Positions 1 through 60,361 are shown, numbered from the stretch's first letter. The stretch is 64,000 nt of DNA from Alphaproteobacteria bacterium (GCA_035437825.1 DAOMYX010000009.1:952-64951), one strand, 5' to 3'. The notes: generated by a model from the letters alone, not told the origin. Numbers and translations: made by a program.

Positions 1-266
1 TCGGGGTTGATGCGTTTTTTCTGCTGCGTCACCATGTCGGTGAATTCCCATTGCTTGCCGTCGAAAATTTTGCGCACGACAACCGCTTCGCCAGTGCTGA
101 TGGTATGCACGGCCTTCGCCTCTGTATCGACGCAGAGCATGACCTGCGCATCTTCCGGCGCGGCCATGGGGGTTTTGAATTCCTTGTCCTTGAGGCCATA
201 GACGGCGGCGGCGCCAAAAGCGGCGGAAAGGGTGAGGGCGGCAATCGCGGCAACGGTCTTTTTCAT
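1..266 (-). CDS. hypothetical exported protein, N-terminal part only (gene runs off the left edge)
   Basis: Reverse-strand ATG at 266-264 opens MKKTVAAIAALTLSAAFGAAAVYGLKDKEFKTP..., a typical signal peptide. The frame stays open to the window edge. It is absent from the ORF track because no stop lies in the window. Confidence 0.55.
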   Translation of the reverse strand, partial: MKKTVAAIAALTLSAAFGAAAVYGLKDKEFKTPMAAPEDAQVMLCVDTEAKAVHTISTGEAVVVRKIFDGKQWEFTDMVTQQKKRINP

Positions 267-388
267 CGGGTTCCTGCTGGTTTTAAATCGGGTGATGGGG
301 GCATCTTATAAAGATTTTATTTTATGTCAAAATATTTTTGACGATATAGACAGCTAAATGCCCGTTTTTAAATGAAAATTCAACAATA

Positions 389-410
389 AAGCCCTGCGGC
401 GGCAGGGCTT
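389..410 (-). terminator. intrinsic-terminator-like hairpin, minus orientation
   Basis: AAGCCCTGC-ggcg-GCAGGGCTT is a 9-bp stem. Only on the minus strand is it followed by a U-rich run (TATTGTTGAATTTTCATTT). No minus-strand gene ends immediately upstream of it. Confidence 0.3.
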
Positions 411-438
411 GGGGCTTAAAAAGCGCTATAAATCCGGC

Positions 439-465
439 TTGACAGTATTTCGGCAATTTTATATC
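439..465 (+). promoter_or_regulatory. sigma70-type promoter candidate for tRNA-Val
   Basis: TTGACA at 439-444, 15-17 nt spacer, TATATC/ATATCC at 460-466, about 25 nt upstream of the mature tRNA 5' end. Confidence 0.4.
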
Positions 466-489
466 CCTATGGCCTGTCCGATTACGGAC

Positions 490-565
490 GGGCGCTTAGC
501 TCAGTTGGTAGAGCACCTCGTTTACACCGAGGGTGTCGGGGGTTCGAGTCCCTCAGCGCCCACCA
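490..565 (+). tRNA. tRNA-Val (anticodon TAC)
   Basis: Full cloverleaf read by hand. Acceptor GGGCGCT/AGCGCCC, D arm GCTC-AGTTGGTA-GAGC, anticodon arm CCTCG-TTTACAC-CGAGG, T arm GGGGG-TTCGAGT-CCCTC, encoded CCA. Confidence 0.95.
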
Positions 566-867
566 TCTTTTCCCGACATCGCAGTTTTACAAAGAGGGGC
601 ACGAAGCCCCCGCTAAATTTATATTTAGCGCGGCAGAGCCGCGCGTGGTTCGAGTCCCTCAGCGCCCACCATCTTTTCCCGACATCGCCGTTTTACAAAG
701 AGGGGCACGAAGCCCCCGCTGAATTTATATTTAGCGCGGCAGAGCCGCGCGTGGTTCGAGTTCCTCAGCGCCCACCATCTTTTCCCAACATCGCAGCTTT
801 ACAAAGAGGGGCACGAAGCCCCCGCTGAGTTTATATTTAGCGCGGCAGAGCCGCGCGTGGTTCGAGT
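541..867 (+). repeat. tandem 106-bp repeat, 3 full units (541-646, 647-752, 753-858) plus a 9-nt stub, each starting with the 3' 25 nt of tRNA-Val
   Basis: GGTTCGAG occurs at 541, 647, 753 and 859 (exact period 106). Units differ by 2-5 substitutions. Each unit holds hairpins GGGGC-acgaa-GCCCC, GCTAAAT-ttat-ATTTAGC and GCGCGGC-aga-GCCGCGC. Confidence 0.95.
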
Positions 868-1009
868 GACAGCTCTGCGCTTTGTATTGTTACCTTGTAA
901 CGGCTGCGGCGTTATAGTGTAACGAAAACGCCAATAAAACGTCAGTTTCAACGGCGAAAATGCTCGAAACGCTTTGCCTAGGCGTGTGCTGCGGGGATAT
1001 GCTCTTTGC

Positions 1010-2041
1010 ATGACAGCACATCATCATACACATGACGAAAATGAACACGGGCATACGCATGAGCATGGCAGCGGTTGCAGCCATCATCATCACGCGCATG
1101 GCCACGCGCATCATCATGGCCACCATCACGGTCATGGTCATCACGGCCATCATCACCATGTGCCCAAGAATTTCGACCGCCGCTTTGCGATTGGCGCGGG
1201 CATCAATATGCTGTTTGTGGTGCTGGAGCTTACTTTCGGCTTCATTTCGAATTCGCTGGCACTGATTGCGGATGCTATTCACAATTTTTCCGATGTGGTC
1301 GGGCTTTTGCTGGCGTGGGGCGGGGCGTGGCTGGCGCGATTGCTGCCAACGGCGCGGCGCACTTACGGCTTTCGCAGCGCGACTATTCTGGCCGCGCTGA
1401 CCAATGCGGCGCTTTTGTTTGTTGTCGTCGGCGCGATTGTGATTGAAGCGGTGCACCGCTTCATGAAGCCGGCAGAGATGGCCAGCATGACGGTGGTTTG
1501 GGTTGCGCTTGCGGGGATTTTCATCAACGGCGCAACCGCGATGCTGTTCTGGCACGGTCAAAAAGACGACATCAATATCCGCGGCGCATTTCTGCACATG
1601 GCGGCGGATGCCGCGGTGTCGCTGGGTGTTGTGATTGCGGCCTTGGTGATTATGGGGACGGGTTGGTTCTGGGTTGACCCTGTTATCAGTTTGCTGATTG
1701 CGGCCGTTATTCTTTGGAGCACATGGGGATTGGCGCGGGAATCGCTGCACCTGTCGCTGGCGGGCGTACCGCCGCAGATTGACCATGCCGCGGTCAAGGC
1801 ATGGCTCGCAGGGCTGCCGGGAGTAACGGAGGTGCATGATTTGCATATTTGGGCGCTCAGCACGACGGAAAACGCCCTGACGGTTCACCTGCTGCGTCCT
1901 GATGCTGTGGCGGACGACGGCTTTTTGCAAATGGTCGCGGCGGAACTGCAAACGCGCTTTCAGATTCACCATCCGACGATTCAGATTGAAATCGGCAATG
2001 CAAAAGAGGGTTGCAAACTGGCGCCCGCGGATGTCGTTTAA
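1010..2041 (+). CDS. cation diffusion facilitator family divalent-metal efflux transporter (CzcD/ZitB-like) with a His-rich N-terminus
   Basis: Six predicted TM helices with CDF motifs (SLALIADAIHNFSDV, HMAADAAVSLGV) and a C-terminal cytoplasmic domain (HDLHIWALS). ATG 1010 is preferred over the track's TTG at 974. Confidence 0.9.
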   Translation: MTAHHHTHDENEHGHTHEHGSGCSHHHHAHGHAHHHGHHHGHGHHGHHHHVPKNFDRRFAIGAGINMLFVVLELTFGFISNSLALIADAIHNFSDVVGLLLAWGGAWLARLLPTARRTYGFRSATILAALTNAALLFVVVGAIVIEAVHRFMKPAEMASMTVVWVALAGIFINGATAMLFWHGQKDDINIRGAFLHMAADAAVSLGVVIAALVIMGTGWFWVDPVISLLIAAVILWSTWGLARESLHLSLAGVPPQIDHAAVKAWLAGLPGVTEVHDLHIWALSTTENALTVHLLRPDAVADDGFLQMVAAELQTRFQIHHPTIQIEIGNAKEGCKLAPADVV

Positions 2042-2130
2042 ACTGTATTTTTGATTTTATTGAATAAAATCATTCATATAACACTCTAAACCCTGCGCAT
2101 AAGAAAAACGGTTTATGTCGATTTATTCCG

Positions 2131-2159
2131 TTGACACAGCCCATAAAAAACGTCATTAA
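2131..2159 (+). promoter_or_regulatory. sigma70-type promoter candidate for tRNA-Asp
   Basis: TTGACA at 2131-2136, 17-nt spacer, CATTAA at 2154-2159, about 25 nt upstream of the tRNA. Confidence 0.35.
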
Positions 2160-2183
2160 ATACGTCCTGACTGCAAGAGAATT

Positions 2184-2260
2184 GCGGGTGTAGCTCAGTT
2201 GGTTAGAGCGCATGCCTGTCACGCATGAGGCCGCGGGTTCAAGTCCCGTCACTCGCGCCA
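2184..2260 (+). tRNA. tRNA-Asp (anticodon GTC)
   Basis: Cloverleaf read by hand. Acceptor GCGGGTG/CACTCGC, anticodon arm CATGC-CTGTCAC-GCATG, T arm GCGGG-TTCAAGT-CCCGT, encoded CCA. Confidence 0.95.
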
Positions 2261-2464
2261 TTCTCTTCCCCGACCGGGGATTTCACACCGTCGTGACCGG
2301 TGTTCAAAATAATCCTGAAAAACCCTTTTTTTTCAAACATAAAAGAGCTAAAAGCTCTTTAACCCTGTCATGGACAGGCGTAATATTGTTTCGCCAGTGA
2401 TTCCCGCCCGCAGCGGACGGTTCATATCACGGGTATGGCTCCGTCTTTAAGGGAAGCGCGCGAC

Positions 2465-2836
2465 ATGATTGCGACCAACATTCTCAGCGACTATTTGCCG
2501 ATTGTCATCTTTCTGGGCATCGCCATGGGGCTTGCCATCGTGATGGTATTGGCATCGTTCCTCGTCGCGCGTCAAAATCCGGACAGTGAAAAGATTTCGC
2601 CGTATGAATGCGGCTTCGAGCCCTTCGGCGATGCGCGCAGCAAGTTCGACGTGCGTTTTTATCTGGTCGCCATTTTGTTCATCATCTTCGACCTTGAAAT
2701 CGCCTTCCTGTTTCCGTGGGCGATTACGCTGGGTGAAATCGGCGTGTACGGTTTCTGGTCGATGATGCTTTTCCTCGGCGTTTTGACTGTGGGCTTTATT
2801 TACGAGTGGCGCAAAGGCGCCCTCGATTGGGAGTAA
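2465..2836 (+). CDS. nuoA: NADH-quinone oxidoreductase subunit A
   Basis: [22 protein letters not shown] and [11 protein letters not shown] are ND3/NuoA signatures. ATG 2465 (AAGGGAAG upstream) gives a normal 123 aa; the track start at 2435 remains possible. Confidence 0.9.
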
Positions 2837-2840
2837 TCGC

Positions 2841-3386
2841 ATGGACACCAACATGAAAATCGGCCAGCCCATTCCGCCGGGTGCCGCGCAAAACGCGCTT
2901 ATCACCGCCGCGACGGAAGAGTTGCAGACAAAGGGCTTTATCGTATCGCAGGTCGATAACCTGCTCGATTGGGCGCGCACGGGTTCGCTCTGGCCCATGA
3001 CCTTTGGTCTGGCGTGCTGCGCGGTTGAAATGATTCACAGCTACATGTCGCGCTATGACCTTGACCGTTTCGGCGTTATCCCGCGCCCGAGCCCGCGCCA
3101 GTCCGACGTGATGATTGTCGCAGGGACGCTGACCAACAAAATGGCGCCCGCGCTGCGCAAGGTTTACGACCAGATGGCAGAGCCGCGCTGGGTGATTTCC
3201 ATGGGTTCCTGCGCCAACGGGGGCGGGTACTATCACTATTCCTATTCCGTCGTGCGCGGTTGCGACCGCGTGGTGCCGGTTGACATCTATGTGCCGGGCT
3301 GCCCGCCGACCGCAGAGGCGCTGGTGTACGGTATCCTGCAGCTCCAGAAAAAAATCCAGCGCGAAGGCTCGCGCCTTGTGAGGTAA
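2841..3386 (+). CDS. nuoB: NADH-quinone oxidoreductase subunit B
   Basis: Cluster-N2 cysteine motifs: [25 protein letters not shown]. Confidence 0.97.
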
Positions 3387-55111: not shown

Positions 55112-56896
55112 ATGGCACAGGACAGCAATACAGAGGCGGCACCCCGCCGGATGATACAAAAGCCCATCGGGCTGCTCTGGCCGCTTCTGGCGCCCTATAA
55201 ACGCCAGCTGGCGGGGGGAATCGGGGCCTTGATGCTGGCCTCCGGCATGATGCTGGCCATGGGCTGGGGACTCAAGAATATCGTCGACCACGGCTTTGCC
55301 GACACGACGGGGGATTTCCTTGACCGTGCGCTTCTGGTGCTTTTGGCTGTTATCCTGCTGATGGCCGCCGCGACTTATACCCGTGTGCGCCTGATTAACC
55401 AGGTGGCGGAGCGTATTACCACCGATTTGCGCCAGCGCATTTACCTTCATCTGCTCTCGCTCGACCCTGCGTATTTCGAACGTGAAAAAACCGGCGACCA
55501 AGTTTCGCGCATTAACGCGGATACGACGGTTTTGCAACTGGTCGTCACCAGTAACCTGCCGTCTGCTTTCCGGCATTTCCTGATGCTGATTGGCGGGGTC
55601 GCGATGCTTTGCGTGGTCAGCCCCTCCATGACCGGGATTGTCATGCTGGCCGTGCCGCTGGTTGTGGCGCCGATGATTTATTTCGGCCGCCGCGTGCGCG
55701 CCAAATCGCGCGATACGCAATCGCGCGTCGGCGACATCGGCGCCTATACCCATGAAACGCTGATGGGCATGCAAACCATCCAGTCTTTCGGCTACGAAGG
55801 CGAAGCCGCGCGCCGTTTCGATGCGCTGGCCGAAGAGACCTATAACACCGCCAGTAAATATATCCGCGCGCGCGCCTTTCTGGTCGCGTTTGTGATTTTC
55901 ATCGTGCTGGGCGCTATCGGTCTTGTGCTGTGGTCGGGCGGGCATAAAGTTCTTACGGGTGAAATGTCGGCGGGAGAGCTCTCGGCCTTTTTGTTCTATG
56001 CCGCCATGGTTGCGGGCGCCTTGATGGCCGTGAGCGAAGCCATGAGCGATTTCAACCGCGCCAGCGGCGCCGCTGACCGCATCATCCAGCTGTTGGCGGC
56101 GGAACCTGCCGTGCAGCCCTCTGCGCAAGGGTTGACTTTGCCCGAAAACGTGGCGGGCTATGTGACGTTTGACGGCGTGACATTCAGCTATCCGACAAGG
56201 CCGGAGCGTCTGGCGCTCGACCGTGTATCTTTCACGGTGACCGCGGGCGAAGTGATTGCACTGGTGGGGCCGAGTGGCGCGGGCAAATCCACCATCTTCC
56301 AGCTGCTGCAGCGCTTTTACGACCCGCAGCAGGGCGCGATTTCGATTGATGGTGTTGACGTACGCGACCTCGACCCGCGTCATGTGCGCGCGGCGCTGGG
56401 CGTTGTGTCGCAAGACCCGGCCGTTTTTTCGATGTCGGTTGCCGAAAATATCCGCATCGGCCGGCCGGATGCCACAGATGCCGAGGTGATGCATGCCGCA
56501 GAGATGGCGCAGGCGCATGGATTTATTTCCGAGCTGCCGCAAGGATACGAAACCATGGTCGGGGAGCGTGGCAACCGTCTTTCCGGCGGGCAGCGCCAGC
56601 GCATCGCGATTGCGCGCGCGCTTTTGAAAAATCCGGCGATATTGCTGCTGGACGAAGCAACCTCTGCACTTGATTCATCAAACGAGCAAGCCGTGCATCT
56701 GGCGCTGCGCGAACTGATGAAAGGCCGCACGACATTCGTGATTGCGCACCGCCTGTCCACAGTGCAGGACGCCGACCGTATTTTCGTACTCGACCAAGGC
56801 CGCATCGTTGCGGCGGGCACGCATCACCATTTGTTCGGGCAAGACAGGCTCTATACCCACCTTGCCGGATTGCAGGACTTGCGCGCGGCGGGGTAA
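55112..56896 (+). CDS. ABC transporter, fused permease/ATP-binding protein (MsbA/ABCB-like exporter)
   Basis: Six-TM domain followed by Walker A GPSGAGKST, LSGGQRQRIAIARA, ILLLDEATSALD and the H-loop IAHRL. Confidence 0.92.
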   Translation: MAQDSNTEAAPRRMIQKPIGLLWPLLAPYKRQLAGGIGALMLASGMMLAMGWGLKNIVDHGFADTTGDFLDRALLVLLAVILLMAAATYTRVRLINQVAERITTDLRQRIYLHLLSLDPAYFEREKTGDQVSRINADTTVLQLVVTSNLPSAFRHFLMLIGGVAMLCVVSPSMTGIVMLAVPLVVAPMIYFGRRVRAKSRDTQSRVGDIGAYTHETLMGMQTIQSFGYEGEAARRFDALAEETYNTASKYIRARAFLVAFVIFIVLGAIGLVLWSGGHKVLTGEMSAGELSAFLFYAAMVAGALMAVSEAMSDFNRASGAADRIIQLLAAEPAVQPSAQGLTLPENVAGYVTFDGVTFSYPTRPERLALDRVSFTVTAGEVIALVGPSGAGKSTIFQLLQRFYDPQQGAISIDGVDVRDLDPRHVRAALGVVSQDPAVFSMSVAENIRIGRPDATDAEVMHAAEMAQAHGFISELPQGYETMVGERGNRLSGGQRQRIAIARALLKNPAILLLDEATSALDSSNEQAVHLALRELMKGRTTFVIAHRLSTVQDADRIFVLDQGRIVAAGTHHHLFGQDRLYTHLAGLQDLRAAG

Positions 56897-56903
56897 CCCG
56901 CAG

Positions 56904-56984
56904 GTCATTCCGGCGCAGGCCGGAATCCATAAAAAACATCACAGGCGTATAAAGAAGATGGACACCGGCCTGCGCCGGTGTGAC
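56904..56984. mobile_element. 81-bp MITE-like nested palindromic element, second copy
   Basis: GTCATTCCGGCgcagGCCGGAATCCAT (56904-56930) and ATGGACACCGGCctgcGCCGGTGTGAC (56958-56984) are inverted copies. They differ only by compensating TT..AA versus CA..TG stem changes. Confidence 0.7.
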
Positions 56985-57005
56985 GGGTGTTTTGTGCGGG
57001 GAGTG

Positions 57006-58769
57006 TTACCGCGCGAAGACGAGGTCAACGCGTTCCAGCGGTTTGCGGTCGGTTTCGAGGCCGAGGGCGCGGACATCGACGCGCGTCGGTTCCACCCCGT
57101 TATCCATCAGGAACGAACGCACGGCCAGTGCGCGCGACAGCGAAATGCGGCGGGCGCTGGTTTTGCTGCCGTCTTCGCCCGAAGCATAGGCATGCACCGC
57201 GAGGCGGCGGGCTTTGCTTTCGCGCAAATGCGGGATGATGTTGACGAGTTTTTGCTGCGTGTCCGCCGTCAGGTCGCTGGAGGTGCCGTCGAATTCCAGC
57301 GTCAAATCCGCCAGCGTCGGCACGGCTATATCGCGCGGCTGCGGCGCGGGCGGCGCAAGGGCGACGCGCGCGGGAACGGCTTCGATGTTCTGGCTGATTT
57401 TTTCAAGCTCCGGCGCGCTCAGCGGCGGGCGGATTTTTTCGGTGGGCTTGGGCGCGGGGCGGCTGGCCAGCAGGGCTTCCGCCTCGTCGCTCGAAAGCGG
57501 CACAAGGCTGTCGCGGTTTGCAGACGCTTCAGCAGCTATGGGGGCGGCGGGCGTTTCTGCTGCGGCATCCAAAGCCGTTGTTGCGGGCAAAGTCGTTGTC
57601 ACGGGCTGGCGGCGCGGCAGTTCTTCGGCGGCGGGGGCGGATTCCACAACCACCAGCGACGGACGCGGGGCGGCAGGCTTTTCTGCCTGCGGTGCGGGCG
57701 CATCCGGCAGCGTTTCGCCATAGAGTGCGGCTGCTTCTGCCAGAGTCATATCTTCGGTATTTGTTTTGTTTTCGATGGCCGCGGACATGTCGTCTTTTAC
57801 AGGCGGCACGGACAGGGCGGCGATGTCGTCATCGCTCAAAACGGTTTGCGGCAGCTCTTCCATCGGCGGTTTGCGCAGGGGCAAGGTGGCGATAGCTTCT
57901 TGCGGCGCAGGGGCGGCCACTGCAGCAGGCGCTGCGGCTTCGGGAGTTGCTGCGGCTATGGTTGCAGGCTTCGCGGGCATTGCCGGTACTGCGGGCGCGG
58001 CATATTCATCGCCGCGCAAGCCTTCGGGCAGAACAGGCCGTTCAAACCGCTGGATATCCGCCGCCGGACGCGCCGCCGGCGGGTAGGAAATACGCGCAGC
58101 AGGGGCGGCGGGTGATTTTTGTGTACCCAAGGCCGCTTGTGGCGCGGGGATGACTTCGCGCGTTTCTTGCGGTGTCAGCAAGGCCGTTTCCTGTGCCGCA
58201 GGCGCAGGGGCCATGTCAGGCTTGCGCATCGGGTGGGCGATTGTTTCCGCGCGTGCGGCGTGTTGTGCCGGGGTGGGCTCCAGAATAGGCGCCATTAGTT
58301 TTGCACGCGGCGCTGTCGCCGGCGTTTCCGCCGTTACCGTACGGCGCGGCATTTCAGATGCTGCTACGGGCGGCTGCGTTACGGGGGTGGCGGCGGCTTT
58401 CGGCAGCGGCGGCACAACGGGCTCGCTGAACATCGGTTTGATGACGCGGCGGGGTTGATTGTCTTGCGGTGCTGCGGTTTCAGCCGCGGCGGGTGCAGGT
58501 TGCACGGCGGGCTGCGGTTCTGGCGCTGCGGCAGGGACGGGCGGCGGCGCCAAAGGTTGACGCAGCACCACGGGCGGCATGTTGCCTTCGGCGGGTTGCT
58601 GCGCTGTGGGCGCCAGTGCATCGCCCGAAAGCGCGCCAAGGTCAACCTCGACGTTCGGCTTTGCGGGTTTGTAGTAGTGATATTGCGCGTGCGCAGGTGC
58701 AGCGAGGGCGCTCGCAAGTGCAGCAGCGGCGGCGCTGACAAGAAGATATTGTTTCAAACTTGCCATCAT
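57006..58769 (-). CDS. OmpA/MotB C-terminal domain protein with about 470 aa of Pro/Ala-rich linker
   Basis: Signal peptide MMASLKQYLLVSAAAAALASALAAPAHA and C-terminal OmpA-like domain (RRLAVHAYASGEDG...NRRISLSRALAVRSFL-type motif). Confidence 0.85.
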   Translation of the reverse strand: MMASLKQYLLVSAAAAALASALAAPAHAQYHYYKPAKPNVEVDLGALSGDALAPTAQQPAEGNMPPVVLRQPLAPPPVPAAAPEPQPAVQPAPAAAETAAPQDNQPRRVIKPMFSEPVVPPLPKAAATPVTQPPVAASEMPRRTVTAETPATAPRAKLMAPILEPTPAQHAARAETIAHPMRKPDMAPAPAAQETALLTPQETREVIPAPQAALGTQKSPAAPAARISYPPAARPAADIQRFERPVLPEGLRGDEYAAPAVPAMPAKPATIAAATPEAAAPAAVAAPAPQEAIATLPLRKPPMEELPQTVLSDDDIAALSVPPVKDDMSAAIENKTNTEDMTLAEAAALYGETLPDAPAPQAEKPAAPRPSLVVVESAPAAEELPRRQPVTTTLPATTALDAAAETPAAPIAAEASANRDSLVPLSSDEAEALLASRPAPKPTEKIRPPLSAPELEKISQNIEAVPARVALAPPAPQPRDIAVPTLADLTLEFDGTSSDLTADTQQKLVNIIPHLRESKARRLAVHAYASGEDGSKTSARRISLSRALAVRSFLMDNGVEPTRVDVRALGLETDRKPLERVDLVFAR

Positions 58770-58783
58770 ACGCTCTTCAATAA

Positions 58784-59599
58784 TTATGACGCCTTGGCGT
58801 CGGCTTTTTTCGCGGCGGGTGCTTTGACGCGCGCGGCGAGGTCTTTGTGAAGCGCGCTATTGGCCGCGACAAGGCTGCCGCCGGTGTTGAAGTTTTTGCC
58901 CATCTTGGCATCCGTCGCCTGTCCGCGCGCTTCGCGCACAAGAACGATACCTGCGGCAACATCCCAAAGACCGCCGCTGATATGCGACTTGCAAAACGCG
59001 TCAAGGCGGCCTGCGGCGACATAGGCGAGGTCAAGGCAGGTGCTGCCCATGTTGCGGATAACCGTGCCGGATTTCACCAGCGTGGCGAGGCCTTCGATGC
59101 TGTCATAGGCGGCGTGATGCAGCGCAACGGCAGCCTCGGCCAGCGAGTTGCGACCGGAAACCTGAATGCGGCGGTTGTTGAGGTAAGCGCCGAGGCCTTT
59201 TTCTGCCCAGAACAATTCGTCCTTCACGGGGTCGTAAATCACGCCCGCGACGATGTCGCCGTCTTTTTCCAGCGCAATCGAAACACACCAGTGCGGAATG
59301 CCGTGCAGGAAGTTCATAGTGCCGTCGAGCGGGTCCACAATCCAGCGGCAGGACGGGTCTTCACCCTTCACTTCGCCGCTTTCTTCCATCAGGAAGCCAT
59401 ATTTCGGGCGTGCCTTGAGCAGGATTTCGCGGATGATTTTTTCGGCTTTGTGGTCGGCGGTGGAAACGAAGTTGCCGGGGCCTTTGCGCGATACCTGCAG
59501 CTGTTCAACTTCGCCGAAGTCGCGCACAAGCGAGCGGCCTGCCTTTTCGGCGGCTTCGACCATGACGTTCATGTGGGCAGAGCGGCGGGCGACGGCCAT
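58784..59599 (-). CDS. suhB: inositol monophosphatase family protein
   Basis: FLMEESGE, WIVDPLDGTMNF and GSTCLDLAYVAAGRLDAF motifs. Confidence 0.9.
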   Translation of the reverse strand: MAVARRSAHMNVMVEAAEKAGRSLVRDFGEVEQLQVSRKGPGNFVSTADHKAEKIIREILLKARPKYGFLMEESGEVKGEDPSCRWIVDPLDGTMNFLHGIPHWCVSIALEKDGDIVAGVIYDPVKDELFWAEKGLGAYLNNRRIQVSGRNSLAEAAVALHHAAYDSIEGLATLVKSGTVIRNMGSTCLDLAYVAAGRLDAFCKSHISGGLWDVAAGIVLVREARGQATDAKMGKNFNTGGSLVAANSALHKDLAARVKAPAAKKADAKAS

Positions 59600-59621
59600 C
59601 TCGGTATCCTTTGGTTTGTGG

Positions 59622-59786
59622 TTAGTCGTTACGACTGAACAGGCTGCCGAACAACGGTTTTTTGTTTTGTGGTTGCTGCGGCACCGTGGCCATCATGACC
59701 GCTTCGGGCGGGGTGGCGACGGCGCGTTTCCATGTCTCCGCCTCTGCGGCGGAAACGTGGAAACAATCCTGTACATCGTATTTCAT
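59622..59786 (-). CDS. possible 54-aa small protein between efp and suhB
   Basis: ATG 59786 lies 8 nt after the efp stop. Product: MKYDVQDCFHVSAAEAETWKRAVATPPEAVMMATVPQQPQNKKPLFGSLFSRND. GC3 is similar to neighbouring genes. No clear RBS, and it is below the track's size cut-off. Confidence 0.3.
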   Translation of the reverse strand: MKYDVQDCFHVSAAEAETWKRAVATPPEAVMMATVPQQPQNKKPLFGSLFSRND

Positions 59787-59794
59787 CGGACGGC

Positions 59795-60361
59795 TTAGTC
59801 TTTTGCGCGTTCGACGTAGGTGGAATCTTCGGTACGCACAACGATGCGCGTGCCGGATTCAATATGCGGCGGCACCAGAACGCGCGCGCCGTTTTCCAGC
59901 ACGGCGGGTTTGTAGGAAGAAGATGCCGTCTGGCCTTTGACCACGGGGTCGGCTTCGACGATTTGCATGATGACCGTTTCGGGCAGGGTCATCGACAGCG
60001 GGCGGCCTTCGTGCATTTGCACTTCAACCATCATGCCGTCTTGCAGGAACTGGGCAGGTTCGCCAATCAGATCTTTGTTCACGACGATCTGTTCGTAGTT
60101 TTCGTTGTTCATGAACGTGTATTCGCCGTCGTTGGCATAGAGGAACTGGAAGTCCATGCTCTCGACGCGGGCGCGTTCGACCATATCCTGCGTGGCGAAG
60201 CGGATGTCGGTTTTGGTGCCCGATACGATGTCGCGCATGACGACCTGCGCGACGGAGGCGCCTTTGCCCGGGGTGCGGATGTCGTTGCTCATGACGACCC
60301 AGAGCTTTTCGTTGTATTCCACCACCATGCCTTTGCGGAGGGTGTTTGCTGCGACTTTCAT
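59795..60361 (-). CDS. efp: translation elongation factor P
   Basis: 188 aa with the loop RTPGKGAS carrying the conserved Lys; three OB-like domains. Confidence 0.96.
   Translation of the reverse strand: MKVAANTLRKGMVVEYNEKLWVVMSNDIRTPGKGASVAQVVMRDIVSGTKTDIRFATQDMVERARVESMDFQFLYANDGEYTFMNNENYEQIVVNKDLIGEPAQFLQDGMMVEVQMHEGRPLSMTLPETVIMQIVEADPVVKGQTASSSYKPAVLENGARVLVPPHIESGTRIVVRTEDSTYVERAKD

Follow-up and report, generated by a model that had tools for sequence, protein, structure and literature searches.

The closest described counterpart of the array analysed here is found in the tyrT operon of E. coli, whose transcript releases the rtT RNA from repeats that, to our knowledge, have for decades been an isolated curiosity with no clear function. 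In the K-12 tyrT-tyrV locus, TRF delimits 3.1 copies of a 178 bp unit with 95% matches, each unit holding the 19-mer AATCCTTCCCCCACCACCA, i.e. the end of tRNA-Tyr from the T loop to the CCA, and the annotated end of rttR is exactly such a CCA. In the consensus of the Rfam family RtT (RF00391), a closing helix forms between GGGAAGG and the tRNA-derived CCUUCCC, with CCACCACCA left over as a tail. Another kind of trailer RNA is represented by the tRNA 3' external transcribed spacers, e.g. 3'ETS-leuZ of E. coli, which are single-copy and act by pairing with known sRNAs. A literature search on rtT, tyrT, rttR and Micavibrio tRNA found nothing specific.

The window, i.e. the whole stretch of 64,000 nt of alphaproteobacterial DNA that was analysed, opens with a minus-strand gene for a 112-aa protein, followed by tRNA-Val with its array, a His-rich CDF metal transporter gene (1010-2041), tRNA-Asp (2184-2260) and the nuo genes from nuoA onward. 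ARAGORN places tRNA-Val, anticodon TAC, at 490-565 on the plus strand (70.3 bits with the Rfam tRNA model), and inside this gene starts a tandem array at 541-867, for which TRF reports a period of 106 bp, 3.1 copies, 96% matches, no indels and a score of 612. The coordinates, period and copy number agree with the original prediction, which also gave correctly the recurrences of the 25-nt tRNA end, the terminal stub and the 2-5 substitutions between units. The repeated tRNA part GGTTCGAGTCCCTCAGCGCCCACCA consists of the last 25 nt of tRNA-Val (541-565) and returns as an identical plus-strand copy, again from the T loop to the CCA, at 647-671 and as a third copy with one C->T at 753-777, as a motif search confirmed; by chance, no recurrence would be expected. 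Between these copies lie spacer 1 (566-646), made up of a linker (566-590) and a 56-nt hairpin block (591-646), and spacer 2 (672-752), with an A->C change in the linker and an A->G change in hairpin 2, while spacer 3 (778-858) is followed by the 9-nt stub GGTTCGAGT at 859-867, the distal breakpoint of the array in the window lineage. The units are 98% and 96% identical, and a search of the 64 kb for a 53-nt hairpin-rich part of the spacer found only its three copies in the array, with 0-1 mismatch. In short, the module joins the last 25 nt of tRNA-Val, from its T loop to the CCA, to the gene's own 81-nt trailer. The same array is present, base for base, in two further assemblies of the same organism, i.e. 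L001 (ENA ERZ761605) and L002 (GCA_002334985.1).

The analogy to tyrT/rtT drawn by the original prediction is stronger than first stated, extending to the period and copies reported by TRF, the CCA ends and the layout of a closing helix. Both loci have a tandem repeat directly behind a same-strand tRNA gene, both comprise 3.1 copies with 95-96% matches, and in both the stretch from the T loop to the CCA of the adjacent tRNA is part of the unit, as is a segment complementary to this stretch, so that a closing helix, internal hairpins and a free NCCA tail are predicted for either unit. They differ in the tRNA (Val versus Tyr) and the host, which is here an alphaproteobacterium, in the length of the unit (106 bp versus 178 bp) and of its tRNA part (25 nt versus 19 nt), and in that the small basic ORF tpr has no counterpart here: the plus strand of the unit contains no ATG, and the only ORFs listed, 409-828 and 799-1011, are spurious. 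Moreover, rtT is known as a released RNA, whereas the tRNA-Val array is known from its sequence. The RF00391 model found no match at E<=1 in positions 1-3000 of the window and none at the gathering score in L003, L015 and L016, three of the related loci introduced below, while E. coli gives four matches of 133-137 bits; conversely, a covariance model of the tRNA-Val unit (R1) found no match in E. coli. The array is therefore an analogue of rtT rather than a homologue or family member, and homology to RtT or any other Rfam family was rejected for want of a match. Spacers of the 3'ETS-leuZ type are likewise tRNA trailers conserved beyond maturation needs, with a possible RNA role of their own, but they contain no copy of the tRNA 3' end, and their single copy and known sRNA partners set them further apart from the tRNA-Val array.

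Each spacer had been predicted to fold into three adjacent hairpins. All three can be drawn on the plus strand, in spacer 1 at 596-610 (hairpin 1), 612-629 (hairpin 2) and 628/630-644 (hairpin 3), but, as first drawn, hairpins 2 and 3 have the two bases G628 and C629 in common and thus cannot both be full length simultaneously; the core of hairpin 3 without this overlap is GCGGC-aga-GCCGC (630-642). In addition, the fold with three separate hairpins reaches -25.2 kcal/mol, compared with -33.6 kcal/mol when the tRNA-derived fragment is paired to the 5' half of hairpin 1. Because of the 2-nt overlap and the inferior energy, three independent hairpins were discarded as the structure of the unit.

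The preferred fold arises from a complementarity of hairpin 1 to the tRNA itself. Hairpin 1 with its flanks (594-611, GAGGGGCACGAAGCCCCC) is nearly the reverse complement of the tRNA T arm (GAGGGACTCGAACCCCC), and the variants of hairpin 1 in L014 unit 2, L020 and L008 come closer still; random G+C-rich hairpins match the T-arm complement equally well in between <=5/100,000 and 1/1,000 trials. Owing to this anti-T-arm, a unit delimited from CCA to CCA is able to form a helix between its tRNA-derived fragment and the 5' half of hairpin 1. The RNAalifold consensus of 11 such units shows a closing helix of 11+4 pairs, with 99% of its cells paired, enclosing hairpin 3 and leaving a free 3' tail, AGCGCCCACCA. 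In the window, copy 2 (647-671) is predicted to pair with 594-605, its tail at 661-671 staying free. Since both sides are nearly invariant, the closing helix displays no covariation. The energy folds of single units differ: the closing helix is the minimum-energy fold in five of the 11, and in the other six the tRNA fragment pairs elsewhere in the spacer. The z-scores of the unit folds are modest, at about -2.3. A tRNA-like minihelix was rejected, as inspection of the unit by eye revealed nothing complementary to the acceptor 3' strand AGCGCCC.

To place the array in an evolutionary context, we compared tRNA-Val trailers from about a dozen lineages, collected by exact-protein look-ups of homologues of the CDF transporter and of the 112-aa protein, supplemented by one scan each of genomes and metagenomes; the upstream 112-aa protein has homologues in three clusters only. 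The module was found only behind tRNA-Val(TAC), in Micavibrio-like alphaproteobacteria (some of them titled Micavibrio sp.), in 0.6 to 3.3 copies. A match from the genome scan, L010, was dismissed as a chance hit in coding DNA without a tRNA. The 3.1 copies of the window recur in the identical arrays of L001 and L002; the same species from another sample (L017) has at least 1.8 copies in a different unit order, on a contig that ends inside the array, and the closest other lineage found, L008 and L009, whose CDF transporter is 98% identical, has 1.1. Further away, there are 3.3 copies in L015, three in L003 (three spacers), 2.4 in L014, where the units are just 84% alike, 1.6 in both L026 and L016, 1.2 in L028 and 0.6 in L012, which equals L016 minus exactly one unit. 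L013, L020 and L029 have no repeat and retain the tRNA, the linker and hairpin 1 only. The original prediction had named a copy number unconserved in close relatives as evidence against it: this is what L008 shows, with its 1.1 copies, but the hairpin block is nevertheless kept in more distant lineages.

The window and L008 share the 9-nt stub as the distal end of the array, whereas L028 keeps 21 nt of the tRNA part; the array of L003 breaks off within hairpin 3, those of L014, L016, L012 and L026 within hairpin 1 or directly behind it, and that of L015 in the linker, past a full 25-mer. This comparison indicates that the distal end is truncated independently in each lineage, and since the breakpoint in the last repeat unit differs per lineage, the array end is a rearrangement hot spot. 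Because arrays of other lineages stop elsewhere and that of L015 ends with a full 25-mer, the stub is a truncated fourth copy of the tRNA part, and its being the site of a single founding duplication is unlikely. The gene content between tRNA-Val and the CDF gene also varies, comprising no gene, a TPR-methyltransferase, a fatty-acid-hydroxylase/creatininase fusion or a Cu/Zn superoxide dismutase (lineage-specific segments: L003 3059-4912, L016 2130-3923 and L006 364-4849).

In a tree of the units, three clades are seen. Unit 1 of L015 is orthologous with unit 1 of L016, and unit 1 of L014 with the units of L003, so the arrays predate several lineage splits, while other units are lineage-specific amplifications. 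Judging from these relationships, units are gained, lost and homogenised through unequal recombination between the repeats. The array is also dispensable, since L012 lost it and neither L008 nor L028 possesses a complete extra CCA end.

Conservation is distributed unevenly along the unit. Between lineages, identity amounts to 97-100% in the tRNA-derived 25-mer, 81-95% in the 56-nt hairpin block and 37-55% in the 25-nt linker, the last resembling ordinary intergenic DNA (distal upstream sequence about 55%). Even within one array, that of L014, two units differ at 14/25 positions of the linker and agree at 51/56 of the hairpin block; the single unit of L008 is the most diverged. The alignments thus point to selection or gene conversion that preserves the tRNA part and the hairpin block, and gene conversion with the tRNA, itself under selection, could account for the conservation of the tRNA part in place of any selection acting on its copies.

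Most changes in the stems preserve pairing. Compensatory changes were found in hairpin 3, with G-C replaced by A-U throughout the L003 clade, and in hairpin 1, with GGGGC/GCCCC replaced by GCGGC/GCCGC in L014 unit 3 and by GGGAU/AUCCC in L029. The covariation that had been proposed as a check in related tRNA-Val loci is hence present in stems 1 and 3, but hairpin 2 is broken by a 1-nt deletion in the L015/L016 clade. Two G-U changes in the window had been put forward as an argument for a plus-strand RNA; this argument turned out weak and non-discriminating once all lineages were counted, because among the one-sided stem changes of 12 units about 6-7 stay paired only on the plus strand and three only on the minus strand, a difference that is not significant.

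Upstream of tRNA-Val, a promoter-like sequence on the plus strand consists of TTGACA (439-444) and the A/T-rich TATATC (460-465). It was not called by the consensus scan; the block TTGACAG...TTTATATCC.TATGGCCTGTCCGAT is kept upstream of tRNA-Val in L003, L008, L015, L016 and L026, and the proximal 60 nt upstream of the gene are 81-95% identical, compared with about 55% in the distal intergenic DNA. Within 541-867, the terminator scan found no terminator-like site on either strand. Behind the array, GCTCTGC (872-878), which is followed by UUUGUAUUGUU, is complementary to GCAGAGC in the last copy of hairpin 3, so that the post-array segment (868-906, plus strand) folds and is a weak candidate for the end of the tRNA-Val transcript, although the terminator scan did not call it. 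L008 has, at 2029-2062, 11 extra nt after the stub compared with the window, which form GCGCC-UUGUA-GGCGC followed by CUUGUAUUGUU; this hairpin is a better plus-strand terminator candidate than any in the window version.

The trailer starts with a U/C-rich motif, i.e. TCTTTTCCCGAC after tRNA-Val (566-577) and after copy 2, and TCTTTTCCCAAC after copy 3, and most relatives examined have a TTTYYCCC-like start behind the CCA. The same motif opens the trailer of tRNA-Asp (2261-2274) as TTCTCTTCCCCGAC and may be a 3'-processing signal common to tRNA-Val and tRNA-Asp. Behind this neighbouring tRNA-Asp gene, no repeated 3' fragment was found.

Some features of the flanking DNA were recorded along the way. 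In the window, the segment 888-922 ahead of the His-rich CDF gene contains the two palindromes GTTACCTTGTAAC and GCGTTATAGTGTAAC. L003, L013 and L015 have kept the element GCGTTATAG(T/A)(G/A)TAAC in front of their CDF genes amid DNA that is not conserved, and it resembles the operator of a metal-responsive regulator. The N-terminal run of the CDF transporter (window 1010-1160) is rich in His, Gly and Asp and varies in length among relatives, TRF detecting periodicities of 18 and 24 nt in L012, L013 and L014, and gene callers disagree on its start (293 aa versus 343 aa). Public gene calls on the minus strand of L002 (3418-3687, 89 aa) and L008 (1997-2341, 114 aa) overlie the array stub (in L008), the post-array spacer and the His-rich CDF start, and are probably spurious. 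At 56000-60000 of the window, the G+C content is 0.62-0.635, compared with about 0.57 elsewhere in it.

The main rival to an RNA made from the array is a duplicated terminator or insulator module: a convergent minus-strand gene would have hairpin 1 as its intrinsic terminator, the array would be a neutral, recombination-prone stack of this terminator and the tRNA 3' end, and any plus-strand RNA would be a by-product, an explanation that we regard as possible but rather unlikely. Hairpin 1 is the sole trailer element found in every lineage, array-less ones included, and a U-rich run (UCUUUGU, UCUUUCU, UCUUUUUU or CUUUUUU) comes after it on the minus strand in every case, since the plus-strand AAAGA before the hairpin is invariant. 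In L003, L014, L015, L016, L012, L020, L026, L028 and L029, the trailer borders on a convergent gene, which in most relatives encodes a TPR-methyltransferase or a fatty-acid-hydroxylase/creatininase, and in L029 the scan called hairpin 1 terminator-like on the minus strand (GGGATTTCTATCCC CTTTTTTATA); the variable copy number and dispensability of the array would also fit. However, the scan did not call hairpin 1 a terminator in the window, L003 or L012, and the window, L008 and L013 have no convergent gene, the module nonetheless standing at 3.1 copies in the window. A terminator leaves unexplained why hairpin 3 and the tRNA copies are conserved and why multi-unit arrays have persisted for so long, and the one-sided stem changes lean, though not significantly, to the plus strand.

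An origin by integration, raised as the alternative in the original prediction, would make the array the functionless scar of a tyrosine-integrase insertion at a tRNA-Val attB, which left behind a displaced 25-nt copy; the element would then have been deleted down to 81 nt and the remnant amplified afterwards. Such att-type features are indeed present, as the 3' segment of the tRNA forms 25-nt direct repeats, L012 and L016 differ by exactly one unit, and behind the array lies a hot spot of rearrangement whose gene content is lineage-specific. Williams is said to have described in 2002 the stretch from the T loop to the 3' end, which is what the repeated tRNA part spans, as the identity block typical of T-loop-targeting integrases, and an unrelated viral contig, L018, has the same tRNA-Val 3' end (fragment 1705-1736) beside an integrase (1820-2959). 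Compared with attL/attR repeats of tyrosine integrases, with which they have the direct repeat of the T loop to 3' end and the rearrangement-prone flank in common, the tRNA-Val repeats are 81 nt apart instead of kilobases, periodic, homogenised and without an integrase. In fact, no integrase or phage gene lies beside the array in about 12 related loci, the neighbours being the CDF transporter, nuo, methyltransferase and hydroxylase-creatininase genes, with housekeeping-like genes downstream; tblastn with the L018 integrase found nothing in the window or the related loci, and IMG/VR contains no match to the spacer's hairpin-1 motif and a single one to the 25-nt core, in that unrelated high-GC contig. 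The spacer is far too short for an element, the hairpin block is kept far better than expected of a scar, and hairpin 1 in the repeat-less relatives marks the trailer as native rather than imported DNA. We therefore reject an integrase or phage origin of the spacer and consider the scar very unlikely as an account of the array, with the possible exception of the founding duplication. It remains hardly conceivable that the array is an assembly artefact or a protein-coding repeat. Short-read metagenome assemblies can miscount tandem repeats, but the array is identical in independent assemblies, which argues against an artefact, related arrays occur in many other samples, and substitutions distinguish the units. 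An ORF of 139 aa (409-828) spans the array, and public gene calls overlap the array-holding region between tRNA-Val and CDF in L002 and L008; however, as predicted, there is no coding logic, in that this ORF runs through the tRNA and the 106-nt period, not being divisible by 3, shifts the frame with each unit. Relatives have periods between 103 and 106 nt, no conserved ORF was found, and a coding repeat was rejected. A dispersed REP/MITE-like repeat was likewise rejected, no further copy being present in the 64-kb window; covariance model R1 matched only tRNA-Val trailers in 183 kb of loci.

The viral contig deserves a remark of its own: at 1636-1760 of L018, a 32-nt tRNA-Val 3' fragment has CCCCAGGTCAGAGCCT repeats on both sides and an adjoining tyrosine integrase, which is a classic attP-like arrangement with the same tRNA end in an unrelated host.

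Taken together, we lean towards an old tandem amplification of the tRNA-Val 3' end and its trailer that is maintained by recombination and probably co-transcribed and processed. The array would be transcribed as a long 3' trailer from the tRNA-Val promoter, presumably the promoter-like sequence at 439-465, and read-through is suggested by the lack of a canonical plus-strand terminator inside the array. Each spacer would then fold closed with the next tRNA-derived fragment, the anti-T-arm pairing with the T fragment and the AGCGCCCACCA tail staying free, and the machinery that matures tRNA 3' ends would cut at each CCA-proximal site, after the U/C-rich motif, yielding RNAs of about 106 nt in the way that the tyrT transcript of E. 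coli yields rtT. Transcription through the array, cleavage at the CCA and stability of the RNA are thus all inferences. A trailer RNA and a convergent terminator are not mutually exclusive.

It is tempting to speculate, though we think it improbable, that the tRNA-Val array and E. coli rtT are convergent members of one class of trailer RNAs that mimic tRNA 3' ends. If this were true, the unit would be a stable RNA, closed by a helix of its tRNA 3' fragment with the anti-T-arm and presenting a free acceptor-strand-plus-CCA tail, and such RNAs would act as a decoy, dosed by the copy number, for a factor that recognises tRNA 3' ends, with a maturation nuclease, the CCA-adding enzyme, a stringent-response sensor or a tRNA-targeting toxin as candidates.

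Regardless, the locus is a second, sequence-unrelated case of the rtT anatomy, behind a different tRNA in a distant bacterial class, and has outlasted several lineage splits. Its recurrence points either to a shared mechanism by which tRNA genes acquire such arrays or to a shared use of the RNA, and it provides a comparative handle on rtT by showing which features recur. More cases may be searched for by a simple rule, i.e. tandem repeats whose unit begins in the T loop of the adjacent tRNA. Even if the array were a neutral by-product, it would still be a clean case of concerted evolution and of breakpoint clustering at a tRNA 3' end.
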